Shown here: positions 7,989 through 56,235 of the stretch, piece by piece
Layout: every line of letters begins with the position of its first letter
How positions within the stretch are numbered: the stretch's first letter is position 1
DNA from: Arenicellales bacterium
GTDB taxonomy: Bacteria; Pseudomonadota; Gammaproteobacteria; Arenicellales; JAJDZL01
Assembly: GCA_965214875.1 (NCBI GenBank)
Contig: OZ243980.1
Coordinates: 1,496,009 to 1,560,008 of the forward strand
DNA: 64,000 nt
Direction of reading: 5' to 3'
The notes under the pieces: model-generated
The model's database searches: none
What the model saw: the letters and a program-made list of their open reading frames with translations, nothing else
Told to the model about the DNA's origin: nothing
Position numbers and translations under genes: made by a program

Positions 7989-10171
7989 TGACCGCTGAAT
8001 TTTCTCGACGCGACTTTCTCAAAGCAACTTCAGCAGCCGCTGCAGGCGCCTTGATAGTCGGATTTTCACCGCGCGGCGTGCTTGCTTCTCAACCCGTTGA
8101 AGGCGGCAACTTTACGCCTTTCATTAAAATAGATAGCGATGGTGCCGTGACCGCAATCATCAAGCACTTCGAAATGGGGCAGGGAACCACCACCGGACTC
8201 GCCACCCTGATTGCGGAAGAGCTGGGTGTCAACATCGATGAAGTGGCGGTGGAATTTGCGCCATCAGATGCCGCTCGCTATGCCAATTCGTTTTTCGGCA
8301 TACAAGGCACAGGTGGATCGACAGCCATAGCGAATTCGTTCATGCAATATCGGCAGGCAGGCGCGGCCGCGCGACAGATGCTGATCAATGCTGCTGCGCT
8401 CAACTGGAATACTGACCCTGCGATTCTATCCATATCCGATGGCATGGTGGTTGGAAATGGCCGGAGCGCACCGATATCGCAGTTTGTCCCTGAAGCTGCC
8501 AGCATGGCGGTGCCCGAACAGCCGAGGCTCAAGGATCTGTCAGAATTTAAACTGATCGGCAATCCGTCCGTCGCTCGTCGAGATAACGAGCCAAAGATCA
8601 CCGGTACTGCTAAATTTGCGACGGATGTCCAATTAGATGGACAAATTGTCGCAGTGATCAAGCGTAGTCCGCGTTTCGGCGGCAAAATGGCGTCTATGGA
8701 TTCATCGGCGGCATCCGCTGTGCCCGGGTTCATCAACGCCGTGGCAATGCCCACGGGCGCCGGGATCGTCGTTTACGCTAAGGACACGTGGTCGGCGTTT
8801 CGCTCACGCGATGCTGTTGCAGTGGAATGGGATTTCAGCGCAGCGGAAAAGCGCAGTCAAAATGCGATCAACGCTGACATGCTCAAAGCGGTTCGTGAAG
8901 CGCCGGAGTTTGTTGCTAGTGCTGGCGCGGACTTGGCAAAAACGAATCGACTTCTCGAAGGTGCGAGCCAAATCATCGAGGCCGAGTTTGTGCTGCCCTA
9001 CCTGAGTCATGCTCCCATGGAGCCGCTGACCTGCACGATTGAGCCTGTGGCAGACGGTGTTGTTTTGCATGACGGATGCCAGATGCCTACAATTTCTCAA
9101 CAGGCGGTTGCCGCGGTATTGGAACTTCCGCCTGAAAAAGTTGGTGTCAACACGCTCTATGCGGGCGGTTCGTTCGGGCGGCGCGCAACCGCAGCCGCAG
9201 ACTACGGTGTCGAAGCCGCTATCGCGTTTGCATTGACTGATCGCGACCGCCCTGTCAAGCTTGCATGGTCTCGCGAAGATGATATTACCGGCGGCTATTA
9301 CCGGCCAGCCGCCGCCCATCGGGTCCGTGCCGGAATTGATGATTCAGGAAAAATCGTCGCATGGGACCACCGGATTGCGAGTCAGTCGATCATCAAGGGC
9401 ACTCCGTTCGAAGCTGTTTTGGTGAAAGACGGCGTGGATGGGAGCAGCGTGGAGGGTGTGCACGACACGCCGTATGAGATTCCTGGCCTGTTTGTCGGTT
9501 TGACTGACATGCAATCGCCGGTTACGGTACTTTGGTGGCGTTCAGTCGGGCACAGCCATACGGCATTCGTGATGGAGTCCATGATGGATATGGCGGCGAA
9601 GGCCGCTGGCCGCGACCCGGTTGCCTTTCGCCTGGATTATCTGTCAGGCGATACGCCTGATCAGCGACGCTTGGCTGGCGTGTTGAAGTTGGCGGCGCAG
9701 GAATCAGGTTGGGATAGCCCGGTGCGGCAAGGTCGTTCGCGCGGCGTGGCGGTTCACAAGTCTTTCAATTCGTACGTTGCTGAGGTCGTAGAAGTTTATC
9801 GGAATGATTCAGGCCATGTTAAGGTAGAGAGAGTCACTTGCGCGGTCGATTGCGGCATTGCGGTCAATCCTGACATAATCAAGGCGCAGATGGAAGGCGG
9901 CATCGGCTATGGGCTTGGTCATGTCATGCGCAACGAGGTGACTTTTGACGAAGGTCGCGTCGTGCAGCAGAACTTTCCGAACTATTCTCCGTTGCGCATT
10001 GCTGACATCGGGCGGATTGACGTGCATATTGTGCCCTCTACGGAAGCGCCGACTGGTGTTGGCGAGCCGGGATTGCCGCCCGCGGGGCCAGCGCTCGCAA
10101 ATGCCATTGCGGTTGAAGGGCCGCGTGTCACCAATTTGCCCATGACGCAGAACGGCATCCGGTTTGCTTGA
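7985..10171 (+). CDS. Molybdopterin-binding large subunit of a xanthine dehydrogenase-family oxidoreductase (IorB type), Tat-exported
   Basis: 728 aa with a twin-arginine signal [19 protein letters not shown] and Ald_Xan_dh_C2-like blocks ([32 protein letters not shown]). Confidence 0.85.
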
Positions 10172-14854: not shown

Positions 14855-15265
14855 TGTACTGGTTCAATACATATGAGACTTTTCAGGCGGCAAGCGCCCT
14901 TTGTCCGAAGTTTTCATTATACGCCTGCATGGGCACCGTTTGTCCGAGCGCCTGATGCGGGCGATAGGCGTTGCAGAAGCGCTCGAATTCGGCCAGCTCG
15001 ACGTTCAGGGCGCCCACGCTCAGCTCGCCGTCGTAGAACTGGTGGAACTCGTAGTGGCCTGTGGCGGTGGCATGTTTCACGCAGCCGTTGCAATCCGACT
15101 TTATCGATGATCTGTAGCGAAATTTTGCCGCAAATCGAGGCGATAGGATTTCTGATGCGGATATTTGATTTGCATGACGCTTTCTCCCGCTTTTCGATGG
15201 CAAGATTTTTGCTAAGCGACATGCCGTCTGAAAATTTTCGCCCGTCTGTCTATTCCTTCCGGATT
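14855..15265 (-). mobile_element. IS481-like element, copy A (about 410-bp internal-deletion derivative, diverged and AT-enriched)
   Basis: The right end TGTACTGGTTCAATACATATGAG at 14855 (read on +) and ~250 bp of transposase 3' end (..YEFHQFYDGELSVGALNVELAEFERFCNAYRPHQALGQTVPMQAYNENF) are joined to a degenerate left end (..ttttcgcccgtctgtctattccttccgga). It is homologous to copies B-D. Confidence 0.6.
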
Positions 15266-15324
15266 GCGTCCTGTGAGAAGAGGCGGGTGCGCTGTTTATG
15301 GCAATCGATAGCTGCCTTTGCTGG

Positions 15325-26732: not shown

Positions 26733-27110
26733 CTAGACCGGCAGCGTGAAAATCCACCGGTCGATAGCCCAGATCGTCGCATAGTAGACGGCCAGCAGTT
26801 GGGCGAGCATAACGGCTGTTCCGCTCCAGCGGACCAGCGTTGCGCTTTGGGAGGTGAATTCGCCATTGCGGTGCATTGCGACCCATTGAGCTAGCCGTTG
26901 ATGCATCCAAGCCGGTGCGCCGCCGATGACGATGCCGCAAAATAGCAGGCCGCAAAGCACAAAGAGCAGTCCTTTCCACTGAAAAAGATGTTTCCAGGCA
27001 TCGTTTTGCCAGACAATGAAAAACGTCACGCCAATAAATGCCATGGCTGCGAAGTTGAGCGTGGCTCGTTTTGCTACGGAATAAACCAGATTTTTCGGCA
27101 GTGAGCGCAT
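26733..27110 (-). CDS. Hypothetical 4-TM membrane protein
   Basis: 125 aa, hydrophobic, with host-like composition. No family recognised. Confidence 0.45.
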   Translation of the reverse strand: MRSLPKNLVYSVAKRATLNFAAMAFIGVTFFIVWQNDAWKHLFQWKGLLFVLCGLLFCGIVIGGAPAWMHQRLAQWVAMHRNGEFTSQSATLVRWSGTAVMLAQLLAVYYATIWAIDRWIFTLPV

Positions 27111-27119
27111 TATCTCCTT

Positions 27120-27254
27120 AAAATCGCGTTAGGGAGGCTGAAAAAGGGAAGAAAATCTTGCATGCAATAATCGGTGTTTTACATGAAACAACCTTTCACG
27201 TGTTGGGTGAATCGGATTGAGGCAAGGCTTTACGGCTATCCTAATCACACACAA
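27120..27254 (+). mobile_element. IS1380-like left-end remnant, interrupted by IS481-like copy B
   Basis: aaaatcgcgttagggaggctgaaaaaggg...ggcaaggctttacggctatcctaatcacacacaa aligns with the left end of the 62093 copy (aaaatcgcgttagggtggctgcaaaagggg...ggagcaaggctttatggacatccaatcatacaag). It is more AT-rich and stops where IS481-like copy B begins. Confidence 0.55.
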
Positions 27255-28020
27255 TGTCCGGGGTCAAATACATGCGGGCGCACGAAAATTTTTCAGGCAG
27301 CATAGTGCTTCACACAAATCCATCAGCCGAAAGGCGGGAGAAAGCACCATGCAAGCCGAATATCCGCACCGCAGATTTTATCGCCTCGACGCGATCCGCG
27401 ACGAACTTTCGCCGCAGGCCGCCTAGTGCTTCGACAGTCTCGCGCTGTTCGACCGCCACGCCAAGCGCTGGCGCTACGGCGACCGCAGGCGAAAGCTGGG
27501 CTAGATGGTCCAAATCGATCACCTGAGCGTCTCTATCGAAGCCGGCTTCGCGGTCAAGGAGTCCGAGGCCGTCTGCCCGGTCTCTAAACTTTGCTGTATG
27601 CGCGCCTGCTCGCGCGCCACCGCCGCTTGCACCTCGAAGTTCCTGGACCATCTCATCCGCCAGGCGCCGTTCAATATCGAGTCGGTGCAGGTCGACGGCG
27701 GCAGCGAGTCCGCGGCCGAGTTCGAGACCGCCTGCCAGCGGCGCGGCATCGCCCTGTTCGCGCTGCCGCCCAAAAGCCCCAATTGCAGCGGCTGCGTCGA
27801 GCGCGCCAACGCGGCCGGCCGCTACGAGTTCCACCAGTTCTACGACGGCGAGCTGAGCGTCGGCGCCCTGAACGTCGAGCTGGCCGAATTCGAGCGCCTC
27901 TGCAACGCCTATCGCCCGCACCAGGCACTCGGGCAAGCGGCGCCCATGAGGCGTATAATGAAAACTTCGACCAAGGCGCGCTTGCCGCCTGAACAGTCTC
28001 ATATGCATTGAACCAGTACA
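27255..28020 (+). mobile_element. IS481-like element, copy B (766 bp, internal 374-bp deletion)
   Basis: Ends are TGTCCGGGGTCAAATACATG ... CATATGCATTGAACCAGTACA. Relative to copy C it lacks the segment between two GTTCGACC octamers (48456 and 48830 in copy C). It retains the rve C-terminal half (ORF 27505..28011). Confidence 0.75.
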
Positions 28021-28159
28021 CATAAATTTCAAAAATTCAAGCGGTTGATGTATCATGATGCCTGCAATCTAGTTGGCAATCGCTGTCGCGAATAAGGAGT
28101 GTATCAGCATCATGACAGAAAAAATGCAGCGAAAAGGAAAGAGCCGGCTTAGCTTTCCG

Positions 28160-28168
28160 CCCCCCCCC
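28160..28168 (+). repeat. Homopolymer C9 inside the 5' end of the autotransporter gene
   Basis: Counted directly: ...agctttccg CCCCCCCCC tccttcaac... Confidence 0.95.
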
Positions 28169-28236
28169 TCCTTCAACTAAGGCCGCATAGATTCCGGCCG
28201 TCCCGGTCTGGCCGGGCGCTGGTCCCGGCAATCGCC

Positions 28237-31200
28237 ATGCTGGCGCTTTGCGCCTCCCCCGCGCAGGCCGCGAACGAATGCGGCGAACTCGACCCTGACA
28301 ACTCCCGGTCCATCGTTTGCGCGGCCGGCGATTCGGCCGGCGACTACGACGCATCCGAAGGCAACATCTTCTACGAGATTTCGGACCGGGATGCCGACTA
28401 CCGGTTCGAGGTCCGCGAAGGGGTGGTCATCACGGGGGTGCGCAGCAACAAGTCGCAGGCGCTCGAGGAGGACAACGTCGGCGGCGAGCCCCAGGACGAC
28501 CACGGCCGGCGGAACTACAGGCCAGGTGGTGTCCTGGGCGATCCCAAGAATCCCGTGGAGGGGGATCCGCCGCACGCCTTGTACGGCGGCATCTTCATCG
28601 ACACGGACGAGGAGTTCGACGGCGACATCGCGCTGGAGTCGCGGGCCGACATCACGGTGATGAACGAGCCCTTCTCCACCGACGACCCGAACCTGAGAGG
28701 ACAAAGGCGCGAGGGCTTGCACGCTGTCTCCGTCGCCCGCGGCATCAGCGTCGCGCACTACGGCAGGTCGGGCGACCTCGACTTGAGGGTCGGGGGCTCG
28801 ATCCGCAGTCCCGGGACCGGCGTGTACGCCGAGATCGACAGCTTGCACCCCGACAAGGAGGGCAGCATGTTCAGGGACATCGACTTCGTCGGCGACATCG
28901 CCATCGATCTGCTGCCCGGCTTGAAAATCCTGACCGACGGCGAGGACGGTCATGGCGTGAGCGCGCAAAACTTCGGCAGCGGCGATATCACCATCACCGC
29001 GAGGAGGGCGAGGCGCTCCGGCGGGCCCGACATCCGGACCATGGGCCATGACGCCAGCGGGTTTCAGGTCAGACTGGGCAACCGGCATGACGTTTTCGAA
29101 AATGTCGAGGACCGCAATATAAACATCGATCTTGAGAATTTCCATATCAAAACCGAAGGCGGCTTCGGCACCGATAGCGGCCGGGATTTCGGGGCTCCCA
29201 GAGATTACTCGTTCGAAGGATCCAGGGGCTTGAAGGTTTACCACTTTACGAAAGGCGCGATGAACATCGCCCTGGCCGGCAGCAAGGTGGAGACCGAAGG
29301 CGTGCGCGGCCAGGGCATCTACGCGGTGTATTTTGCCGACGGCAGGCGAATGAATCAGGATGGCATGCTGCAGAATCACGGTCCCTTGCCTAAGAATACT
29401 AACGGCGGCGGGGCTATCAATATCGATCTCGCGGACACGCAGATCATGACCAGGGGAAACTATGCGGACGCGGTCTTCGGCTATCACGGGTCGGAAGGCG
29501 ATATCGACATCGATGTCGCTCGCGGCAGCGAAGTCACGACGGAGGGCGCGAACGCGCATGCCGTCGCCGGCCTGCATCACGGCACGGGCGATGTGATTGT
29601 CGATGTTCGCAGCAGCCGCATCGCCACGAAGGGCGCGGGGTCGGACGGCATCCGCGGCGGGCACCGCGGCGCGGGGGCCGTCATGATCACGGCCCGGAAC
29701 GCGGACATCAGGACGGAGGGCGATAAGGCGGACGGCATCTTCGCCTTCCATTTGGGGGCGGGCGGCACAGTCGATCTGACGAAATATGATCAGGCGGCGC
29801 CGGTATCGGCGGCGCGCGGCACCGGCCCTCGGGAACTTTTCGATGCGGCGCCGGCAGCGGATTTCGATTCGAGCGCAGGACCGCCCCGGATCCGTATCGA
29901 GGTCGATGGCGGAGAGATCGTCGCGGCCTGCGCCGGCGAGGACGCGGAGGACCCCGCCGACTGCCGGGGCCGGGGCATCGTCGCCGAGTTCGGCCCTGCC
30001 GCGCAAGACGGCGAGGCCCGGGTCGACATCGCCCGGGCGGTGGTCAGGGGCAGGCGCGCGGTCGAGTTCAAGGGCGGCCGGGGCGTGCTCAATCTCGCCG
30101 ACAGCCGTTTGGTCGGCAATGTGCTGTTTGCCGATGGCGACTACGACGACGTGCTGAGCATCACGCAAAGGTCCGGTTCCGGGCGGATTGGCGGAAGCGT
30201 CAATTTCCTTGGCGGCGACAACGACAAGCTGACGCTCGACATTGCCGACGGCCAGCACTTTGTTTTCGACGGGCCGGTTGTCGGGCTGGAGTCCTTCAGC
30301 AAAACGGGCGGCGGCTGGGTGCGCCTCGCCGACAATGCCGACTTCGCAAACAGCAGCCTGATGGTGGATGACGGGTATCTGGTCGTTGCCGGGCTGCTGA
30401 ATGCCGGCTCGGGCGAGCTGACCGTAAAAAACGCCGGCCGGCTGGTGTTCGAGGCGGGCCTTGACGGCTCGCCCGGCACCATCAGGCATGGGCAGATCAT
30501 TGCCGGCAGGCTGCGCTTTGAGGGCGTTCAAGGCGATGGCGGGCCGTTCGTGCTTTTTCAGCTGGACGAAGATTTGAGCGAAAAGCAGGTCGCTGAGGCG
30601 CGGCGGCTTCTGGCGGCATCGAACGGCTTGAATCTGCTCTATCCCGTCGAGTCGGTCACCGACGGGGCTGAGTCTGAGCTGGACGACCTGGAGATTCGGT
30701 CGCGGTCGGATGGCGGCGGCGAGTCGAAGGTCGGCATGATAGCGATCGATGATGACGGCATAGGCAAAGCCACGTTTGATCAGGAGGCGAAAGACAGGAT
30801 TGGCCGGCTGGATTTGCCGGGGACGTTCGTTGCCGGCGGGGGCGGGGGCACCGGCGGTTCCGGCGGGGGCGGTTCCGGCGGCGGGGGCGGCATTCTCGGC
30901 CTCGGCCTGCTGGCGGTGCTGCTGGGCGCTTTCCTTGGCGGCGGCGAGGAGGCGGATGCGGGCTTTGCCGAATACGGCCTGGGCTTTGCGCGGCCGGCCC
31001 ATGTCGCCGCGGCCGACGAGCGCGGCGTGCTGACCTTGCGCGAAGCGGGCGGGCGGCCCTACCGGCTGTGGGTGCGCACCGGCGCGGGCGCCCAGGCGCT
31101 GCCGATGGCCGGAGTCCCGGGCCTTGGCGCGGACGGCCTGGAGATCGGCTTCAGCCTGCGCGGCGGGGACGGCTTCCGTCTGAGCGCCTCGGCGGTGCCC

Positions 31201-31878
31201 GAGGCGGCGGCGCGGGCGGACGCGCTGAGGCTGTCCGCCGAGGGCTCGGCGCTGGCGCTTAGCGGCGGCTGGAGCGACGGGCGGCGCTTTGCGGGGCTGC
31301 GCCTGTCGCAGGGCGCCTTCGAGGCGGCCTCGGTGGTGGCCAATCCGGCGGCCGGCGGGGCGCTGCTGAGCCGGGCCCGGCTCGATGGCCGGCAGGCGCA
31401 GCTGCGGGCGGGCCTGCACCTCGATTCGGAACGCTGGCGGTGGACCCCGTCGGTCGCATTTCGCGCGGGCTCCTTCAGGCAGGGCGCGCACACGGCGCAA
31501 GGCGCGGCCCTCAGGGCGGAGGTCCCCGCGTTCGAGCAGGACTACGACAGCTTACAGCTGGGACTGAGGATGGCCGCGAAGGGGTGGCTGGACCTCGCCG
31601 GCGGCAAGTGGCGGCCGCAGCTGAAGCTCGGCACGGTGCGCACCTCGGCGGGCGGCGCCCGGTCGGCGGGGCTGGCCCAGTCCGACCGGCTCGGGGTGCT
31701 GAGCTTCACCACGCGGGCCGGCATCCGGGCCCTGCCGGAGACGGTCCATTCGCTGAGCTTCGGCGCGCAGGTGAAGGCTGGCGGCGGGCGGGCAGCATGG
31801 CGGTTCGGCCTCGCCGGACTCGAGGCCGACGGCGAGAAGCACTACGCGGCGCTGGCCGGCTACCGGCTGAGATTCTGA
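28237..31878 (+). CDS. Autotransporter (type Va) outer-membrane protein; the true start is probably ATG 28112 after a 1-nt correction in the C9 tract
   Basis: 1213-aa ORF. The passenger has degenerate beta-helix-like repeats (..GDIDIDVARGSEVTTEGANAHAV.., ..AVMITARNADIRTEGDKADGI..). A Gly-rich linker GGGGGTGGSGGGGSGGGGG follows, then a ~300-aa C-terminal domain with alternating-hydrophobic strands ending ..HYAALAGYRLRF (aromatic terminal residue typical of OM beta-barrels). I counted about 72% G+C at 28201-28300. Confidence 0.8.
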   Translation: MLALCASPAQAANECGELDPDNSRSIVCAAGDSAGDYDASEGNIFYEISDRDADYRFEVREGVVITGVRSNKSQALEEDNVGGEPQDDHGRRNYRPGGVLGDPKNPVEGDPPHALYGGIFIDTDEEFDGDIALESRADITVMNEPFSTDDPNLRGQRREGLHAVSVARGISVAHYGRSGDLDLRVGGSIRSPGTGVYAEIDSLHPDKEGSMFRDIDFVGDIAIDLLPGLKILTDGEDGHGVSAQNFGSGDITITARRARRSGGPDIRTMGHDASGFQVRLGNRHDVFENVEDRNINIDLENFHIKTEGGFGTDSGRDFGAPRDYSFEGSRGLKVYHFTKGAMNIALAGSKVETEGVRGQGIYAVYFADGRRMNQDGMLQNHGPLPKNTNGGGAINIDLADTQIMTRGNYADAVFGYHGSEGDIDIDVARGSEVTTEGANAHAVAGLHHGTGDVIVDVRSSRIATKGAGSDGIRGGHRGAGAVMITARNADIRTEGDKADGIFAFHLGAGGTVDLTKYDQAAPVSAARGTGPRELFDAAPAADFDSSAGPPRIRIEVDGGEIVAACAGEDAEDPADCRGRGIVAEFGPAAQDGEARVDIARAVVRGRRAVEFKGGRGVLNLADSRLVGNVLFADGDYDDVLSITQRSGSGRIGGSVNFLGGDNDKLTLDIADGQHFVFDGPVVGLESFSKTGGGWVRLADNADFANSSLMVDDGYLVVAGLLNAGSGELTVKNAGRLVFEAGLDGSPGTIRHGQIIAGRLRFEGVQGDGGPFVLFQLDEDLSEKQVAEARRLLAASNGLNLLYPVESVTDGAESELDDLEIRSRSDGGGESKVGMIAIDDDGIGKATFDQEAKDRIGRLDLPGTFVAGGGGGTGGSGGGGSGGGGGILGLGLLAVLLGAFLGGGEEADAGFAEYGLGFARPAHVAAADERGVLTLREAGGRPYRLWVRTGAGAQALPMAGVPGLGADGLEIGFSLRGGDGFRLSASAVPEAAARADALRLSAEGSALALSGGWSDGRRFAGLRLSQGAFEAASVVANPAAGGALLSRARLDGRQAQLRAGLHLDSERWRWTPSVAFRAGSFRQGAHTAQGAALRAEVPAFEQDYDSLQLGLRMAAKGWLDLAGGKWRPQLKLGTVRTSAGGARSAGLAQSDRLGVLSFTTRAGIRALPETVHSLSFGAQVKAGGGRAAWRFGLAGLEADGEKHYAALAGYRLRF

Positions 31879-31999
31879 CCGGACCGGACAACAGGAGGAT
31901 TGCCGCAAGGGCGCAAGGCGCGGTAGCCCTCCAAGTCTAAATGCCGCAGAGCGCAACGGCCCGAAACCCGCGCCGGAGTTTTTTGCGGACGAGTCTCCG

Positions 32000-32011
32000 C
32001 CCCCCCCCCCC
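32000..32011 (+). repeat. Homopolymer C12 in the unassigned spacer after the autotransporter
   Basis: Counted directly: ...gagtctccg CCCCCCCCCCCC aattcatcg... Confidence 0.95.
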
Positions 32012-32370
32012 AATTCATCGCCTTGGGAAATTCCGGACAGGCCGGCGCTGAAAAAGCGCATGAAGCAGAAACAGGGCCAAGGACCGGCAATGGGCGCAAG
32101 CGTCCAAGCTGAAACAGCCGCTTTCGCGGTTGCGGCGCCAAGGCCGCCCAGCACCCGAATCATCCCGGCCGCCTCGCTCAGATCCCTCAACGCCGCACTT
32201 GGACTCGATGTGCATCGGCTCAAATCTCACATCCAGCATTTGGTGCGGTGATGTGAAGCAGGCGCATTGGCGCCGAAACCGCTGCAGATGGATGAGACTG
32301 TGGAAATATTCCGTTTTTGCATAAATATCATCCTATTAAAAATGAAATATCTTTGAACACAACAACATAA

Positions 32371-32381
32371 CCCCCCCCCCC
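32371..32381 (+). repeat. Homopolymer C11 abutting the left inverted repeat of the IS30-like element
   Basis: Counted directly: ...aacaacataa CCCCCCCCCCC attccactatgaagtgcaacacc... Confidence 0.95.
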
Positions 32382-32480
32382 ATTCCACTATGAAGTGCAA
32401 CACCCTGGAGGTGGGTGGGGTGTTGCAAACGGCCGGCAGGCGGATGACAATCTCCATGTCAACCACAACGGAGAGCTGTC

Positions 32481-33613
32481 ATGCACAAGTGCTACCACCA
32501 GCTGGCCTATCACGAACGATGCCGGATCAAGGTCCTGCTGTCAAGGGGGTTTTCGATGCGCGGCATCGCCGGTGACCTGAACCGGAGTCCGGCCACGATC
32601 AGCCGCGAGGTCGCCCGCAACCGGGGAGGACGCGGCTACCGGCACGGGCAGGCCCAGGAGAAGGCTGTCGCCCGCCGCAGCGAGGCGTCGGGCGCACCCC
32701 GCAAGCTGACCGAGGCGCTGTGGCGGCGCATCACTGGCCTGCTGAGGCAGGGCTGGAGTCCGGAGCAGGTCGAGGGTCGCCTGAAGCGTCTGGGCGAGGA
32801 GACGGTGGGCCGGGAGTGGATCTGCCGGCAGGTCCGGGCGGACCGCAAGGCCGGGGGCGACCTGTGCCTGTGCCTGAGGCGACGGGGCCGGAAGCCGAAC
32901 TGGAAGGGCGGGCGGCATGCCGGTCGGGGCCGCATTCCGGGGCGGGTGGACATTGCCGAGCGTCCTGCGGCGGTGGAGGAGAAGAGCCGGGTCGGGGACT
33001 GGGAGCTGGACACGATCGTCGGCGCGATGCACCGGGGGGGGGGGCTTTGCTGTCCTCGGTGGATCGGGGGTCCTGGTTCACCATCCTGGAGCTTCTGGCC
33101 GGCAAGGCCGCGGCACCGGTGACCGAGGCCCTGCTGCGGCGCCTGGGGCCGTTCCGCGACCGGACACACACCCTGACCGCGGACAACGGCAAGGAGTTCG
33201 CCGGCCACGAGGAAGTGGCGGCCGGGCTGGACGCGGGGTTCTACTTCGCGATCCCGTACCATTCCTGGGAGCGCGGCCTGAACGAGCGCGTCAACGGCCT
33301 GGTGCGCCAGTACTTCCCGAAGGGCGCCGACTTCCGCCAGGTCGCGGCGGAGCAGGTGCGCGAGGTCGAGGACCGGCTGAACCACCGCCCCCGCAAGGTG
33401 CTGGGCTACCGCACGCCCTACGAGGTCTTCCACGGGGGACTGGCCCCGCCCGGACCCTGCCGCCCGGACGGTCCCGCGCCGCGCCCGCCAAGGGCGGGCG
33501 ATGCACCCGTACGCCCGGCATCGGGCCTTGCAATGCCGCCCGGCACTGTCTACAATGCCGGAAAGTCGGGATTGTCACCGCTTCGGGGCCGAACGAACAC
33601 TCCGCTCCCCTGA
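32481..33613 (+). pseudogene. IS30-family DDE transposase, frameshifted in a G11 tract
   Basis: The N-terminal frame (32481..) reads YHQLAYHERCRIKVLLSRGFSMRGIAGDLNRSPATISREVARN...WSPEQVEGRL...GDWELDTIVGAMHRGGG. It continues in another frame (to 33613): ALLSSVDRGSWFTILELL...TLTADNGKEFAGH...YFAIPYHSWERGLNERVNGLVRQYFPKGADF...LNHRPRKVLGYRTPYEVF. The switch is exactly at the G11 tract. Confidence 0.8.
33034..33044 (+). repeat. Homopolymer G11 inside the IS30-like transposase gene
   Basis: Counted directly: gatgcacc GGGGGGGGGGG ctttgctgtcc. G12 or G9 would restore ..HRGG(G)ALLSSVDRGSWF.. Confidence 0.95.
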
Positions 33614-33614
33614 T

Positions 33615-33665
33615 TGCCCCCTGCCTGTCCATGAAGGCGTAGCCTTCATGGACAGGCAGGGGGCA
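33615..33665. repeat. Perfect 24-bp-arm palindrome (3-nt loop) at the right end of the IS30-like element
   Basis: TGCCCCCTGCCTGTCCATGAAGGC gta GCCTTCATGGACAGGCAGGGGGCA. It starts right after the transposase stop and ends at the right IR. It may be a terminator or a subterminal structure. Confidence 0.9.
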
Positions 33666-34122
33666 GTGTTGCACTTCGGAGTGGAACTGGGGAACTGATT
33701 ATTTGCCGATCCTAGTTAATATTGGAACACTTTTACAGTCTCGGATGCGCCGTGCTGCAAACTGCTTCTTAACTCGCAGATGCAGTTGAATCGTCGTGCC
33801 TTCGTTTATGCCTGTGGATCGCCTAGCTGTTGGATTTCGCATAAAAATAGGATTTTCCCATGCCATTGGAACCACGCGATTGATCGTTTTCGATCATCGA
33901 TTTGCGCGTACGAACTGACTTTTTCGTTCTAGTGGTGTATGTGTATGCGCCATCGGATTTGTGCTACGCAATCAGGGTCTGCAGTGCGGCATACATGCCC
34001 GGGAGGTGTCGGTGCGTCTTGCGCAGTCTGAACGAATGCGTTATCTGTTGCCGCCGTGCGGTTTCATTGCAAACTATCCAAGTTTCACAACGTACAATTG
34101 ATCTATACTATGCATCCGTTGT

Positions 34123-34198
34123 GGGGCGGTAGCTCAGTTGGGAGAGCGTAGCGTTCGCAATGCTAAGGTCGGGAGTTCGATCCTCCTCCGCTCCACCA
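34123..34198 (+). tRNA. tRNA-Ala (anticodon CGC)
   Basis: ggggcggtagctcagttgggagagcgtagcgttCGCaatgctaaggtcgggagttcgatcctcctccgctccacca. It has the G3:U70 alanine identity pair, a TTCGATC T-loop and encoded CCA. Confidence 0.9.
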
Positions 34199-34715
34199 AT
34201 TCGCTGCGCGATAAGAACCTTTGTGAGTGTCGTTGTGCAAGGAGCTTTGAAATCACTCTTGTTCAGCCGATACGAATCCCATGTAAGCATCGAAGCTGGC
34301 GATAGTTTGCAGTGCAAAGCGCGTTGCCGCTTGCTCACGGGTCATTAAGCTCATAGGCGAAGCCTCTACATCCACGAAGTTCCGTCAATCATCGCAGAAT
34401 CGAAAATGTATGCCACCGCGCGATCTGCTGGTGGCGTCTTTGTTGCTCAGTGGCTATGATTCTACGGGCATGGTCGTAGACATTCAGCATGTTGCGGCGA
34501 TGCCGATAAGCGAGAAGGTGAATGTGTCGAGATAAATTGAGGGCGGTTGATGGACGTACGTACGTTTCAACTGTGAATGCGCGATGGACTTGAAGTTGTC
34601 GATTCAAACCGTCGCTAACAATTAATCGTGTTGATATCGCAGAACAGTTGCAGCAGAAGTGAAGAACGCTATAGCGGTAAATTTCAGCACTGCTTTTGCC
34701 TATGCACGAGGCAAC

Positions 34716-48206: not shown

Positions 48207-48242
48207 TCGAGGGCACTGTCCGGGTTCAGATACATGTGAGAC

Positions 48243-48289
48243 CGTCCGCCTCCTCCCGAAGGACGCAGTCCGAAGGGAGGAGGCGGACG
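48243..48289. repeat. 15-bp-stem hairpin within a ~51-bp insertion unique to the left end of IS481-like copy C
   Basis: CGTCCGCCTCCTCCC gaaggacgcagtccgaa GGGAGGAGGCGGACG. Copies B and D read ...acatgcgggcgc(a/g)cgaaaa... at this point without it. Confidence 0.85.
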
Positions 48290-48317
48290 CGCGAAAATTT
48301 TTGAGGTAGCATGGCGC

Positions 48318-49376
48318 TTGATTAAAACCCAACAGCCGAAAGGCGGGAGAGAGCGCCATGCAAACCGAATGTCCGCACCGCAAATTTTATCGTCTCGATC
48401 CAATCCGCGACGAACTTTCGCCGCAGGCCGCCGAGCGCTTCGACAATATCGCGCTGTTCGACCAGCTTCGCCGCGAGGGCGCGACCGAAGCGACCGCCCT
48501 GAAGGGATCGGCTGCTCCCGGGCCACGCCCTGCCGCTGGAAGCGGCGCCTGCGCGAGCAGGGCGTCCGCGCCCTGGCCGACCGCTGCCGCCGCCCGCACC
48601 GGGTGCGGCAGCGCCAATGGACCGACCGCGAGCTCGAGCTGGTGCGCCAGGCGCGGCAACGCTTTCCGCTGCGGGGGTGCGCCAAGATCCGCGCCGTGCT
48701 GGCGCGCGAGCGCGGCTTCGCGCCCAGCGAGTCCGCCACCGGACGCATGATCGCCCGCCTGGTTCGCACCGGCCAGGCCGAGCCCGTCGCGTTCCATTAC
48801 GGGCGCGTCAAGCCCAAGCGGCGGTGCAAGTTCGACCGCCACGCCCGGCGCCGGCGCTACGGCGCCCGCGGGCGAAAGCCCGGCCAGATGGTGCAGATCG
48901 ATCATACGGGCGTCGCCATCGAGGCCGGCTTCGCGGTCAAGGAGTCCGAGGCCGTATGCCCGGTCTCTAAGCTTTGCTGCATGCGCGCCTATTCGCGCGC
49001 CACCGCCACCTGCGCCACAAGATTCCTCGGCCATCTGATCCGCCAGGCGCCGTTCAATATCGGGCCGGTGCAGGTCGACGGCGATAGCGAGTCCGCGTTC
49101 GAGTTCGAGACCGCCTGCCGGCGCCGCGGCATCGCCCTGTTCGCGCTGCCGCCCAGAAGCCCCAAGCATAGCGGCTGCGCGGAACGCGCCAACGCGTCCG
49201 GCCGCTGCGAGTTCCACCGGTTCTGCGCCGGCGCGCCGGGCGTGGGCGCCCTGAACGTCGAGCTGGCCGAATTCGGGCGCCTCTGCAACGACTGCCGCCC
49301 GCATCAGTCGCTCGGACAAACGGCGCCCATGCAGGCGTATAATGAAAACTTCAACCAAAGCGCGCTTGCCGCCTGA
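48318..49376 (+). CDS. IS481/IS3-superfamily integrase-type (rve, DDE) transposase
   Basis: 352-aa ORF: ..RWKRRLREQGVRALADRCRRPHR.. (HTH region) ... QMVQIDHTGV ... FNIGPVQVDGDSE ... LPPRSPKHSGCAERAN (rve core). The likely authentic N-terminus MQTECPHRKFYRLDPIRDEL.. (ATG 48358) is in another frame. Copy D shows the two parts were once contiguous, so copy C carries a 1-nt deletion near 48505. Confidence 0.7.
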   Translation: MIKTQQPKGGRERHANRMSAPQILSSRSNPRRTFAAGRRALRQYRAVRPASPRGRDRSDRPEGIGCSRATPCRWKRRLREQGVRALADRCRRPHRVRQRQWTDRELELVRQARQRFPLRGCAKIRAVLARERGFAPSESATGRMIARLVRTGQAEPVAFHYGRVKPKRRCKFDRHARRRRYGARGRKPGQMVQIDHTGVAIEAGFAVKESEAVCPVSKLCCMRAYSRATATCATRFLGHLIRQAPFNIGPVQVDGDSESAFEFETACRRRGIALFALPPRSPKHSGCAERANASGRCEFHRFCAGAPGVGALNVELAEFGRLCNDCRPHQSLGQTAPMQAYNENFNQSALAA

Positions 49377-49471
49377 AAAGTCTCATATGTATTGAACTCG
49401 TACACCGAATTGGTTTACAATGGGGGCATTCCTATTCATTCGGAGATTGAAAAATGCTGAAGCTGAACTCA

Positions 49472-49482
49472 CCCCCCCCCCC
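49472..49482 (+). repeat. Homopolymer C11 between a start codon and a signal-peptide coding region
   Basis: Counted directly: atgctgaagctgaactca CCCCCCCCCCC atccagctagg. Confidence 0.95.
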
Positions 49483-49523
49483 ATCCAGCTAGGTTAGCTG
49501 CCGTCGGGCTAGCGCTTGCCGCG

Positions 49524-49988
49524 TTGTTGGTCTTGCCTGTGACTGCGCAGGCACAAGTGAAAGAGGAATGCGGTGCGGAAGACATCACCATAACGCTGCA
49601 TAAAAGCACCCCAAATACCTCTGTTGTTGAAGGCGTAAGCTCGACAATCGTATTCCGAAGAGATGCGGAAAAATGCTCCACGGATAATCCGCTCCCCTTT
49701 TGTGTCCGAATAATAGACACCACCCCATGCAATCCCGGTGATGCCACATGCTACCGCGGCACAGCCTATGCACATCAATCAAGAATTGTGAATCTTATAC
49801 CCCTCAACGCTCTTGAGCCTAGGGGACTAGAAAAGCTTTGCGGCCAAATGATAGCAGGTGCACCTCAAGTATTTCTCACTTACCGCACTTACAATAATTC
49901 CATCCGAGACTCCATTCCGAATGCGCTGCATATATTGATGATGAACCCGACGCGCATGCTAACCCTTGAAATTATGGACAACGACTGA
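49524..49988 (+). CDS. Hypothetical secreted Cys-rich protein; 5' end interrupted by C11, 3' end at an IS1380-like junction
   Basis: The frame is open from 49482 and encodes ..HPARLAAVGLALAALLVLPVTAQA/QVKEECGAEDITITL.. (signal peptide with an AQA cleavage site). The only RBS+ATG (GGAGA, ATG 49454) is in another frame upstream of the tract. The ORF ends ..LTLEIMDND exactly where the IS1380-like fragment begins. Confidence 0.5.
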   Translation: MLVLPVTAQAQVKEECGAEDITITLHKSTPNTSVVEGVSSTIVFRRDAEKCSTDNPLPFCVRIIDTTPCNPGDATCYRGTAYAHQSRIVNLIPLNALEPRGLEKLCGQMIAGAPQVFLTYRTYNNSIRDSIPNALHILMMNPTRMLTLEIMDND

Positions 49989-50377
49989 CATTTGTGCGAG
50001 CGCCTCGAGCAGGCGCCGCTCGCGGTGAAGATGCGACACGTCGTCCATGCACCGCCCGCCTTCGTGCAGCATCAGCATGAACGCGCTCAGAACCTCGCCG
50101 CTGCGGTAGCCCCGATTGCTGCCGGGCGATGCTATCCTGTCGTCGGCCGCCCGCTCCAGCCCCAGACGACCGAGCAGCTCCGCCGCCACCGCCAAGCCGG
50201 CTCGCGAAGCGGATTTCTTGCCGGTCGACTCGATCTTGCAGGGTAGAGCATCCATCAGCCTTGTACCGTTTGTGTCGTTCTCCGGCCTTCACCCGGAGGG
50301 TAACACCTCGAATGTTGGTAAAGCCTTATGATGCAAAATTTCCCGCTATTTTGCAGCCTCCTAATTGCCGATTAGGG
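49989..50377 (-). mobile_element. IS1380-like fragment (left end plus the first ~85 codons of the transposase)
   Basis: ORF 49959..50255 MDALPCKIESTGKKSASRAGLAVAAELLGRLGLE...RGYRSGEVLSAFMLMLHEGGRCMDDVSHLHRERRLLEAL parallels the 62200 transposase N-terminus. The upstream sequence (reverse complement ccctaatcggcaattaggaggctgcaaaatagcggg) matches the IS left end. Confidence 0.6.
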
Positions 50378-51299
50378 CTATATAACTTTGAGGCAATGAT
50401 CGTGTGCAAGTTTTAGCCGCTCCGAAATTTGCGATAGAGCTGACGCTCGGGTCCGAGACTGATTTTAGCTGGACGGAGGGGCTGGCGCAGATTATTGGCA
50501 AAATCGCTACATGGTGTCTGCCAGAAAACATCCTGATTTTAAGCGCAGATCGGCACCGAAAGAGCAGAAAGCATGATTGTCGCAACGGCGACGGAGCAGC
50601 GGCAGGCGGGAAACCGCTCCATCGGCCCTTTCGATCAGTGCCGGTTCAAGAACAGTCCAGGTTAATTGGTTCAGCAAATTGGAGTGCGCCAAATGCTTTA
50701 ACGCTTATGCTGCTTCGCCTCTTTTCCTCCTCGTACACTCGCTTGTTGAAAATGTCCGCAATGTTCGATCTTCTTCTCGTGGATTCGGTACAAGCTAAAG
50801 ATACCGCGACGGCTCGGCAAGTGCTGGGAGTCCTGACTAGTTTTTCCTAATGCTGAAGTCAGGTGACAGCATGGTGGAAACCCGATCTTCGCCCGTGTTT
50901 CGAAGTGCGATTCAGACTAACCGGCAACTGGGTTGTTCGAGCAGAGTAATCGCTCAGATAACGACCTAAAGGATTATCTGATTTCCCATCCATCAGACCT
51001 CCTGTACTTTTAGCACTAGGTTGAGCAAGTTCGCCGCACTAGGCCAGATGAAGGCACGATTTTAGGGCTAAGGCGGGTTCGTCGCACTTTTACTAACGAC
51101 AAGCTGCCATTTCGGGCGGCTATAATCAGATCTAGTTCGTTATCGTGCCTTAGTTCAGTGGTCTGCAATTACGAATTGGACCGCAAGTTCTCCGTAGTAT
51201 CGGGCTTGCCGAGGCCGGTCGCTGAAGCGCCATGCCGTTCTATATGATTGACGAACCATTGATTCTAGCCGGCATCGCCGGTATGGTTTCAGATCTTGT

Positions 51300-51375
51300 G
51301 CCGGTGTAGCTCAGTCGGCAGAGCAGCTGATTCGTAATCAGCAGGTCGGAGGTTCAAATCCTCTCGCCGGCACCA
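51300..51375 (+). tRNA. tRNA-Thr (anticodon CGU)
   Basis: gccggtgtagctcagtcggcagagcagctgattCGTaatcagcaggtcggaggttcaaatcctctcgccggcacca. Cloverleaf with a 7-bp acceptor (one G:U), TTCAAAT T-loop and encoded CCA. Confidence 0.9.
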
Positions 51376-55361: not shown

Positions 55362-55588
55362 TTTCGCATTTCTTTAAATGAGGATTAGGAACCCCAGGCG
55401 GCAAGGTTACTGAATTCGCTGATTCAGATCAGGAAATCTGCTTGAAGCAAGGGGATTATATGTTTGGGTTGACAAGGTCCGTAAGATGGACGGGGAAAGC
55501 CGGAAAAGTCATACAGCCTGCAGAAAACAATTGCACAACTATTGTTGTAAACATTACGCACATGACAGGAGGGCAACATGATGAAGCA

Positions 55589-55598
55589 CCCCCCCCCC
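55589..55598 (+). repeat. Homopolymer C10 four codons after a strong RBS+ATG
   Basis: Counted directly: acAGGAGGgcaacATGATGAAGCA CCCCCCCCCC ataagcgttaaattg|TGTCCGGGG (IS481-like copy D starts 15 nt after the tract). Confidence 0.95.
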
Positions 55599-55613
55599 AT
55601 AAGCGTTAAATTG

Positions 55614-56235
55614 TGTCCGGGGTCAGATACATGCGGGCGCGCGAAAACATTTTCAGGTAGCATGGCGCTTGACAACAATCCAGTAGCCGAAAAGCTGGAG
55701 AATGCGCCATGCAAACCGAATGTACGCACCGCAAATTTTATCGTCTCGATCCGATCCGCGACGAACTTTCGCCGCCGGCCGCCGAGCGCTTCGACAAGCT
55801 CGCGCTGTTCGACCAGCTTCGCCTCGAAGGTGCCTCGCAAGCGACCGCCCTGAAGGCGATCGGTTGCTCCTGAGCTACGCCCTGCCGCTGGAAGCGTCGC
55901 CTGCGCGAGCACGGCTTCGCGCCCAGCGCCTCCGCCACTTGCGCCTCGAAGCTGCTCGACCGCCTGATCCGCCAGATGCCGTTCGACATCGGGCCGGTCC
56001 AGGTCGACGGCGGCGGCGAGTCCGTGGCCGAGTTCGAGAACGTCTGCCAGCACCGCGGCATCGAACTGTTCGCGCTGCCGCCCAAAAGCCTCATTTGTAG
56101 CGACTACGTCGAGTGTTCCAGCACTGCCGGCCGCACCAGGCGCTCGGACAAACGGTGCCCATGCAGGCGTATAATCGGAACTTCGAACAAAGTGGCTGGC
56201 CGTCTGAACAGTCTAATATGTATCGAACCCGTACA
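55614..56235 (+). mobile_element. IS481-like element, copy D (622 bp, several internal deletions, in-frame stop)
   Basis: Ends are TGTCCGGGGTCAGATACATG ... TAATATGTATCGAACCCGTACA. It retains MQTECTHRKFYRLDPIRDELSPPAAERFDKLALFDQLRLEG..ALKAIGCS*ATPCRWKRRLREHG, then jumps to ..LIRQMPFDIGPVQVDGGGES... Confidence 0.7.

Follow-up and report, generated by a model that had tools for sequence, protein, structure and literature searches.

A probable contingency gene for a predicted secreted six-cysteine protein, with a poly-C tract ahead of its signal peptide, in an uncultured marine gammaproteobacterium

In the DNA described here, a stretch of 64,000 nucleotides (the window) from an uncultured marine gammaproteobacterium, a run of eleven cytosines stands between a short leader and the hydrophobic core of a signal peptide and leaves the two out of frame with one another. 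We consider it likely that this is a contingency (phase-variable) gene for a secreted protein, at present OFF, with switching by changes in the length of the run. The first-pass annotation had proposed a gene with a ribosome-binding site, ATG, leader, poly-C run and signal peptide in that order, OFF by one extra cytosine, and this proposal is now supported by homologues that read through the run in frame, by differences in run length and by selection on the mature protein. The promoter, the export of the product and the switching by replication slippage within a population are what we infer from the DNA sequence.

Results

Anatomy of the tract

The features of the locus are collected in Table 1. 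From the ATG at 49454 the sequence continues CTG AAG CTG AAC TCA, then eleven cytosines beginning 18 nt 3′ of the ATG, then ATCCAGC and the TAG at 49490, an open reading frame whose translation is MLKLNSPPPPSS. Direct reading and re-translation bear out the layout first reported for this stretch, from GGAGA through the start codon and leader to the stop. Homopolymers of about 8 nt or more in a 5′ coding region or promoter are the kind expected of such loci, and the run of eleven lies in the 5′ coding region. When its length was varied in silico from C8 to C14, read-through was observed at C10 and C13 only, with the product MLKLNSPPP(P)HPARLAAVGLALAALLVLPVTAQA/QVKEEC... reading on to the TGA at 49986-49988 (the fusion including the start of the signal peptide can also be written MLKLNSPPP(P)HPARLAAVGLALAALLVLPVTAQAQVKEEC...). 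The predicted fusion of leader to signal peptide at C10 was thereby recovered, and C13 restores it too. The other lengths terminate early, as SS* after 2 codons for C8, C11 and C14 and as IQLG* after 4 codons for C9 and C12, and a change of one unit toggles in silico between the full-length product and early termination.

Judged by eye against the n/h/c and −3,−1 rules, which for a Sec-type (SPase I) peptide ask for an h-region of 10-20 residues and small residues at −3 and −1, the predicted signal peptide begins with a basic n-region, followed by 16 residues of hydrophobic core and the putative cleavage motif A-Q-A (by inspection, K3 and R13; LAAVGLALAALLVLPV; A-Q-A before Q), and the signal peptides of the homologues share this n/h/c pattern. 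The mechanical open reading frame call begins at an internal TTG (49524) within the hydrophobic core, just as had been noted. The downstream frame had been described as open from 49482; it is open there, but it opens already at 49467, just after the TGA at 49464-66.

The sequence that follows the run, GCTAGGTTAGC, holds two TAG triplets at a spacing of five bases, so that each OFF frame meets one, and is translated A-R-L-A in the ON frame. With a TAG in each OFF frame, OFF products end within 2–5 codons of the run. At the same place the relatives of the gene have GCTAGACTAGC or GCTAAACTAGC, so that the ON frame reads A-R/K-L-A. A role for the 12-codon open reading frame as a poly-proline stalling leader was considered and rejected, since the homologues fuse it in frame and there is no usable restart codon before the hydrophobic core.

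Table 1. Positions of features at the target locus and elsewhere in the window
Feature	Position	Strand	Basis or remark
Other IS481-like copies	27255-28021, 55613-56235, 14855-15287(-)
Companion gene: ATG, 16-codon leader, C9 (28160-28168)	28112-28168	+	In silico translation
IS481-family copy, frameshifted transposase	48217-49404	+	NCBIfam transpos_IS481 E=2e-32; Pfam rve_3/HTH_32
Candidate sigma-70 promoter TTGAAC-18-TACAAT	49392-49421	+	Consensus match
Shine-Dalgarno GGAGA	49442-49446	+	7 nt 5′ of ATG; direct reading
Start codon and six-codon leader MLKLNS	49454-49471	+	Direct reading, in silico translation
Poly-C tract C11, proposed slipped-strand switch	49472-49482	+	Out of frame as assembled
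Rest of signal peptide HPARLAAVGLALAALLVLPVTAQA, ON frame	49482-49553	+	In silico translation
TAGGTTAG, two TAG stops (49490-49492, 49495-49497), one per OFF frame	49490-49497	+
Mature protein, 144 aa and stop	49554-49988	+	Six conserved cysteines; C-terminal ...EIMDND
IS1380-family transposase N-terminal fragment	49959-50255	-	NCBIfam transpos_IS1380 E=2.6e-11, model 1-81 of 419
tRNA-Thr(CGT)	51300-51375	+	Borders the IS-rich islet holding the target gene

A small protein family that shares the tract

The target protein gave no sequence match in Pfam, NCBIfam or PDB. A word-indexed search of 5.8 billion proteins returned a single match, the copy in a second strain (L001, below), and a full HMMER search of 1.84 billion representatives together with a profile search added eight more distant relatives, for nine in all, one of which (P0035) is marginal (E = 5e-4). 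Neither the gene nor its flanks were found in scans of species-representative genomes, JGI metagenomes and a viral collection. The family is unannotated, very small and patchily distributed.

Four distant homologues, 26-30% identical to the target, carry leader, run and signal peptide in one continuous open reading frame; leaders in the homologues are 5-8 codons long, with equivalent GGAG sites before the ATG. Poly-C is found at the same position in all seven tract-bearing loci, which span several genomes of 45-65% GC, with lengths of 10, 11, 12, 13, 13, 18 and 23. Four of these are in frame, two (the window and L001) are out of frame and one (P0033) is ambiguous, and both ON and OFF states are accordingly found in nature. 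The four ON loci have runs of pure C in genomes of 45%, 57%, 54% and 65% G+C, respectively: P0031 (C13; MFKLMKLPPPPLAKLATLF.. / MFKLMKLPPPPLAKLATLFLLIILAMPVQAQ), P0034 (C12; MKQTNRKSPPPHLARLAA.. / MKQTNRKSPPPHLARLAAILLLALPAGPAMAE), P0037 (C10; ..SPPPLARLAA.. / MKQTNRKSPPPLARLAA...) and P0036 (C18; ..SPPPPPLARLAA.. / MNQTNRKSPPPPPLARLAA...). P0033 lies in a type III secretion cluster, and the state of its C23 run depends on the start codon: ON from a distant GTG, OFF from a nearby ATG that has a ribosome-binding site. Two JGI fragments have no run.

AlphaFold (AF2) modelling with six family sequences as input gave a confident beta-sandwich (pLDDT 84.7, pTM 0.80). Foldseek against the PDB returned generic Ig-like domains only, with pilin and Gram-positive adhesin domains at the top at TM 0.42-0.47, where a TM of 0.5 or more was taken as the threshold for membership of the Ig-like adhesins or pilins and one match alone had E <1e-3. 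The target is therefore predicted to be a small secreted six-cysteine protein of the beta-sandwich fold class; a role in binding or adhesion would be a guess. A Calx-beta-like domain had been suspected from the ...I.DND ending, and was dropped when nothing relevant appeared in Pfam, even at E up to 10.

Long C/G runs and other tract-led genes

The window has a G+C content of 54% and contains six C/G runs of at least 9: C9 at 28160, C12 at 32000, C11 at 32371, G11 at 33034, C11 at 49472 and C10 at 55589. A first-order Markov model predicts 0.21 such runs, an excess of about 30-fold, and for runs of at least 11 the four observed compare with 0.012 expected, an excess of about 300-fold. Runs of 6-8, by the same model, are depleted (3 observed, about 16 expected), and C runs of this size are absent from the window altogether. 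Long runs in excess together with avoidance of medium runs point to a pattern produced by selection for a few hypermutable tracts. The tract layout at the target is more than chance.

The run at 28160 belongs to a companion gene in which C9 precedes the signal peptide of a 1213-aa autotransporter-like protein (28237-31878), for which no Pfam autotransporter domain match was found. As first described, this gene shares the layout of the target and needs the opposite shift, being in frame at C10 or C7; the first-pass annotation read this as a possible sign of contingency loci that switch independently. An orthologue in another circular genome (L020), 55% identical, carries G9 in the corresponding position, one short of the G10 that it needs; the sequence of the tract differs (C versus G) and its position is the same. 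All four 5′-coding tracts that were checked, namely the target in the window and in L001, the companion and the L020 orthologue, are one base out of frame. Further tract-led genes occur in L021. A 201-aa protein there has the module MHNTTL-C10-TTGCTAGACTAGCGG in frame with a mature part that shows no relation to the target family (hhalign probability 0.1%), and a 302-aa protein has C9 in the same place.

Run lengths in a second strain

The second strain, L001, is represented by an ENA metagenome contig that is 98.1% identical to the window over positions 39576-60000. An A-to-C substitution at 49471 converts CA plus C11 into C13 in this strain, leaving both the total of 13 nt and the OFF phase unchanged, and the run at 55589 is C10 in both. 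Between the two assemblies there are 13 indel events in 20 kb, none of them in a long homopolymer, which argues that run lengths are reproducible between assemblies. Across about 2% genome divergence, then, two comparable runs (the target and 55589) kept their length, and this counts as evidence against very fast switching, or as a sign that the OFF state is favoured. The tract lengths at 28-33 kb were compared only with the 55%-identical orthologue in L020.

These data bear on whether the frameshift is real. If the true run were C10 (or C13), the gene would be intact and the frameshift an artefact of assembly or consensus; to judge from contig names such as ctg22928_317.58x_l, these are probably long-read metagenome assemblies, in which errors fall most often in long homopolymers, and the fact that each of the four tracts above is exactly one base off would fit such a pattern. 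However, two independent assemblies agree on 13 nt at the target and on C10 at 55589, with no long homopolymer among their indels, and miscalls would have had to add a base (+1) at the target and drop one (−1) from the autotransporter-like genes. In-frame runs of C10, C12, C13 and C18 were moreover assembled from the same ENA samples and, even were the length wrong, a conserved C run of 10-23 nt at this position would make a slippage-prone switch. We therefore think a miscall unlikely, in agreement with the first-pass annotation, which had thought it a poor explanation.

A different reading accepts the assembled length and takes the out-of-frame state as normal, with slippage of RNA polymerase, or of the ribosome by +1 at tRNA-Pro on CCC-C, giving constant low expression. 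Long homopolymers cause transcriptional slippage, CCC-C is a +1 shift-prone site, and both strains hold the same out-of-frame length though one of them gained a C by substitution. Four homologues read through the run in frame, however, so that being out of frame is no conserved trait of the family; a shift opposite to that of the target is needed at the autotransporter-like genes; and the locus showed neither a conserved stimulatory structure nor a stall signal, its sole nearby stem-loop-like site being a weak pattern-scan match. Recoding as the normal mode of expression is on this evidence improbable, whilst slippage may add leakiness on top of the DNA-level switching that we favour.

Selection on the mature protein

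Divergence between the window and L001 peaks at 48250-50000. Over the 144 mature codons of the target there are 4 synonymous and 48 nonsynonymous differences (pS 0.039, pN 0.146), to be compared with pS 0.045 and pN 0.005 for the flanking hydantoinase gene and pS 0.040 and pN 0.003 for the flanking LysR gene. The resulting pN/pS of 3.7 (binomial p = 0.0026 against neutrality) stands against 0.07-0.42 for the neighbours, and the amino-acid divergence of the target is 30-50 times theirs at a normal synonymous divergence. All six cysteines are kept, and the two mature proteins differ by one in-frame codon indel and have no stops. On this pattern of substitution the mature protein is under positive selection. 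Two other origins of divergence were considered. Recombination with a divergent donor, which could account for the peak, was rejected for the gene body as pS is not raised, although it may still fit the IS part. Mutagenesis by a diversity-generating retroelement (DGR), which the high pN/pS had brought to mind, was rejected as the 52 substitutions are of all types with no adenine bias, and a template-repeat search of the window found no template repeat or second copy of the gene body.

The same numbers speak to the possibility that the gene is a decaying pseudogene in an IS-ridden islet, with the frameshift a fixed lesion and the tract of no consequence. The gene does have a degenerate IS481-like copy on one side and an IS1380 transposase fragment on the other, neither available strain has it in frame, and its family is tiny and patchy. 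A pseudogene would, however, be expected to show pN close to pS; a pN/pS of 3.7 with pS like that of the neighbours indicates a gene that is used and not decayed, and excludes a neutral pseudogene. Furthermore, neither strain shows another lesion anywhere in the 144 codons, the sole indel being of a whole codon, and the cysteines, promoter, ribosome-binding site and signal peptide are all conserved, the last three perfectly. Decay is thus very unlikely. For selection to act on its amino-acid sequence, the protein must be produced, at the least intermittently.

The 5′ part of the gene behaves quite differently from its body. Promoter, ribosome-binding site, leader and signal peptide are nucleotide-identical in L001 save for the A-to-C change that lengthens the run, and the 72 nt of signal-peptide DNA 3′ of the run are 100% identical against a mature part that is 12% diverged. 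This weighs against a downstream start, at GTG 49557 (ATG in L001) or TTG 49524, that would make leader and signal peptide irrelevant. Such a start was chosen by automated calls: the gene caller used for L001 begins its protein (P0001) at the ATG equivalent to 49557, and so without the signal peptide, and the mechanical open reading frame begins at the TTG. There is no good ribosome-binding site before either codon, however; a start at TTG 49524 would leave a hydrophobic stub lacking its head, six conserved cysteines make a cytoplasmic protein unlikely, and the signal peptide is fused in frame in every full-length homologue. We regard initiation at these codons as extremely unlikely, and start the protein at ATG 49454.

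Genomic setting and a recurrent 5′ module

The right terminal repeat of the IS481-like element upstream (...GTCTCATATGTATTGAACTCGTACA) ends 49 nt 5′ of the target ATG. The candidate promoter is the sole promoter-like site on both strands of 49000-50400, where chance predicts 0.7 such sites per 1.4 kb. Its −35 hexamer lies within the IS right end and its −10 (TACAAT, 49416-49421) in the flanking DNA, so that it would be a hybrid promoter, partly built from the end of the IS481-like element; L001 has the same site unchanged, although immediately 5′ of it 16 bp of the IS end are duplicated. On the other side, the IS1380 fragment, which also has a weak Pfam DDE_Tnp_1_4 match, is convergent with the target gene and overlaps its last 30 nt. 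An Rfam scan found three tRNAs and no other RNA family. Arenicellales (Gammaproteobacteria) MAGs encode proteins 54-69% identical to the neighbouring LysR-type regulator, and these relatives retain the LysR/oxidoreductase pair, with the tRNA-Thr present in three of the five scanned; at this locus they have no IS, no target gene and no long C/G run.

Six tract-led genes (the target, the gene at 28160, two in L021, one in L026 and one in L025) have an IS481-like right end at 49-91 nt 5′ of their ATG. The GCTAGryTAGC arrangement recurs 3′ of the run in five homologous modules (two in L021 and one each in L022, L025 and L026). Those of L021, L026 and L025 are near-identical, with 64-66 of the 66 nt after the run the same, but the DNA between the flanks AAAT and TCGCTAGAC measures 15 nt in L021, 12 nt in L026 and 18 nt in L025. 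The same flanks with differing lengths between them mark the run as the mutable element. The corresponding mature regions are far more diverged (pS 0.17-0.47, pN/pS 0.6-1.0), and a near-identical 5′ module on diverged bodies suggests that the module is held constant by conversion or transfer as the bodies evolve fast. Parts of it are common to unrelated secreted proteins and to genomes of 45-65% GC from the same host-associated communities. We raise as a tentative possibility that the switch is a portable module consisting of an IS481-like right end, a short leader, a poly-C run and the GCTAGryTAGC motif, in which the IS end may supply promoter elements. At L022, a locus of 45% GC, there is no IS end upstream.

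Discussion

The scheme that best accommodates these observations is as follows. Transcription would probably start from the hybrid promoter, with its −35 in the IS481-like end and its −10 in the flanking DNA, and translation would begin at ATG 49454 behind GGAGA, pass through the six leader codons and enter the C run. With 10 or 13 cytosines the run would be read as Pro3-4 and on into the Sec signal peptide (…HPARLAAVGLALAALLVLPVTAQA/Q), and the 144-residue six-cysteine beta-sandwich protein would be exported. In any other phase, including the assembled C11, a TAG would be met within 2-5 codons and no protein made. Slipped-strand mispairing at replication would add or remove cytosines, giving reversible and random flips between ON and OFF in individual cells. 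Once exported, the protein would probably be exposed to a host, phage or competitor, and amino-acid change would be selected.

Several known systems offer parallels. The nanH3 sialidase gene of Gardnerella has a C8-C14 run in its first ~100 nt, beside the part coding for the signal peptide, every third length alone gives the full protein, and clone sequencing has shown length heterogeneity within a colony (10.1101/2020.09.16.300947). The likeness extends to annotation: where the run is out of frame, the protein is annotated without its signal peptide, just as P0001 is here. The two differ in that the nanH3 run lies 3′ of the signal peptide and that of the target 5′ of the hydrophobic core, in that protein and host are unrelated, and in that the lengths at the target are known from consensus assemblies. 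In Neisseria, pilC has a poly-G run in the signal-peptide coding region. A survey covers other homopolymer contingency genes of this genus (PMC5084427). What is shared is a 5′ G/C homopolymer, an exported surface-associated protein, ON/OFF control by frameshift and many such loci per genome; the target differs in its protein and in belonging to an uncultured marine gammaproteobacterium. We know of no Neisseria counterpart to the shared module of leader, poly-C and ARLA or to the linkage with an IS end.

For the companion gene at 28160, the closest parallels are the phase-variable autotransporters of N. meningitidis, AutB (PMC5118866) and NalP/MspA (reviewed in PMC5472700). In both cases a 5′ homopolymer sets the frame, in a genome with other tract-bearing genes, although this parallel concerns the companion gene and not the 144-aa protein. 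The oipA gene of Helicobacter pylori has CT repeats in its signal-peptide coding region that set ON or OFF by frame, and strains are found in either state (PMC10564699); there the repeat is a dinucleotide and the product an outer-membrane protein of a known family, whereas the target has a homopolymer. More generally, a statistical survey found homopolymeric tracts to be enriched at the 5′ ends of prokaryotic genes (PMC2831843). As in that survey, the tract here is near the start codon, so that OFF products are very short; the difference is that here it is a specific gene family in which the position of the tract is conserved.

Homopolymer contingency genes are textbook material in host-adapted pathogens such as Neisseria, Haemophilus, Campylobacter and Helicobacter. 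Our literature search found no description of such genes in uncultured marine gammaproteobacteria related to Arenicellales, bacteria that, to our knowledge, are known from metagenomes only. The mechanism proposed is thus a classical one, and what is new is the protein family, the uncultured marine host lineage and a recurrent, possibly IS-linked leader module.

In conclusion, the finding defines a new family of small secreted proteins. If the switch is real, these bacteria would vary stochastically a set of exported proteins under strong diversifying selection, which would point to an arms race, be the opponent a host, a phage or a neighbour. Truncation of such genes by gene callers, with loss of the signal peptide as happened with P0001, would then be systematic, and distributions of tract length in long reads already available could serve to read the ON/OFF states of populations in natural communities. 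The recurrent leader module provides a searchable pattern, ATG-N(15-24)-C(9 or more)-N(0-6)-GCTAGNNTAGC. Should the tentative reading of this module as portable be true, uncultured marine symbionts would be acquiring a phase-variable secretion leader ready-made, spread among them by an insertion sequence.

The autotransporter-like gene and its surroundings

The 1213-residue product of the autotransporter-like gene had no Pfam or NCBIfam match at E ≤ 0.01; its label is owed to remoter homologues that carry PF03797 (34–35% identity) and to its C-terminus, ...GYRLRF, which is typical of outer-membrane barrels. A 55%-identical orthologue is found in a different circular genome of 3.29 Mb (L020), where the run between the leader (MKKIPQAGLPASRRIEMRGGG) and the signal peptide is G9 on the coding strand, whereas it is C9 in the window: a different base at the same position. 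With G9 the reading frame is one base off; G10 would restore it.

In the window the gene lies within a block of 59–75% G+C, compared with about 52% in the flanks. This block, which is probably a genomic island, terminates at a tRNA-Ala gene and contains an IS481-like copy, the autotransporter-like gene and an IS30-type element. Of the six long runs in the window, four fall within the block. The IS30-type transposase is broken by its G11 run into open reading frames of 213 and 297 amino acids, and substituting G12 gives a single protein of 377 amino acids with Pfam matches to HTH_38 and the integrase core; its expression may be frameshift-controlled or phase-variable. For the C12 and C11 runs upstream, no ORF logic was found.

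Coordinates of runs, leaders, insertion sequence ends and associated features
Feature	Locus	Position	Remark
High-G+C block	window	27000-34200	
Autotransporter-like ORF	window	28237-31878	
C12 run	window	32000-32011	non-coding, between autotransporter-like gene and IS30-type element
C11 run	window	32371-32381	non-coding, same interval; ~100 nt 5′ of IS30-type transposase ATG
G11 run	window	33034-33044	within IS30-type transposase, 32481-33613
tRNA-Ala	window	34123-34198	
Third tract-led leader, RBS (GGAGGG)-ATGATGAAGCA-C10	window	55568-55613	C10 at 55589-55598
Same C10 run	L001	16024-16033	second strain
IS481-like right ends	window	28021, 49404, 14855(-), 56235	
IS481-like right ends	L021	9913, 841(-)	
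IS481-like right end	L026	~9937	
IS481-like right end	L025	~9932	
16-bp duplication	L001	9822-9837	window equivalent 49397
G9 run	L020	9943-9951	autotransporter-like orthologue
Family gene with C23	L023	10001-10579	C23 at 10072-10094
5′ module	L021	9960-10100	
5′ module	L026	9960-10100	
5′ module	L025	9960-10105	

A third leader and the IS481-like element

A third poly-C leader looks like the 5′ stump of a further tract-led gene severed by an IS481-like insertion, the left terminal repeat of which (TGTGTCCGGGGTCAGATACATG..., from ~55613) starts 15 nt 3′ of the C10 run. The length of this run is the same in both strains. The right-end sequence of one IS481-like element, GTCTCATATGTATTGAACyrGTACA, lies 49–91 nt 5′ of the ATG in six poly-C-led genes, one of them from a genome of 65% G+C. 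Every IS copy in the window is frameshifted or internally deleted. In the second strain the right end carries a 16-bp tandem duplication (TATTGAACCAGTACAG TATTGAACTCGTACA) that is absent from the window and leaves the promoter-like hexamers untouched.

Relatives of the six-cysteine protein

One distant relative of the putatively secreted six-cysteine protein (L023) sits inside a type III secretion gene cluster. Its C23 gene has two starts in different frames, an ATG close to the run and a GTG farther off, each with a ribosome-binding site, so that two of the three phases could yield product, as in multi-start phase-variable genes. In three other family genes (L021, L026 and L025) the 5′ modules, comprising upstream region, leader and signal peptide, are near-identical while the mature parts differ (pS 0.17–0.47), which suggests that the 5′ module of these genes has been exchanged or is evolving in concert.
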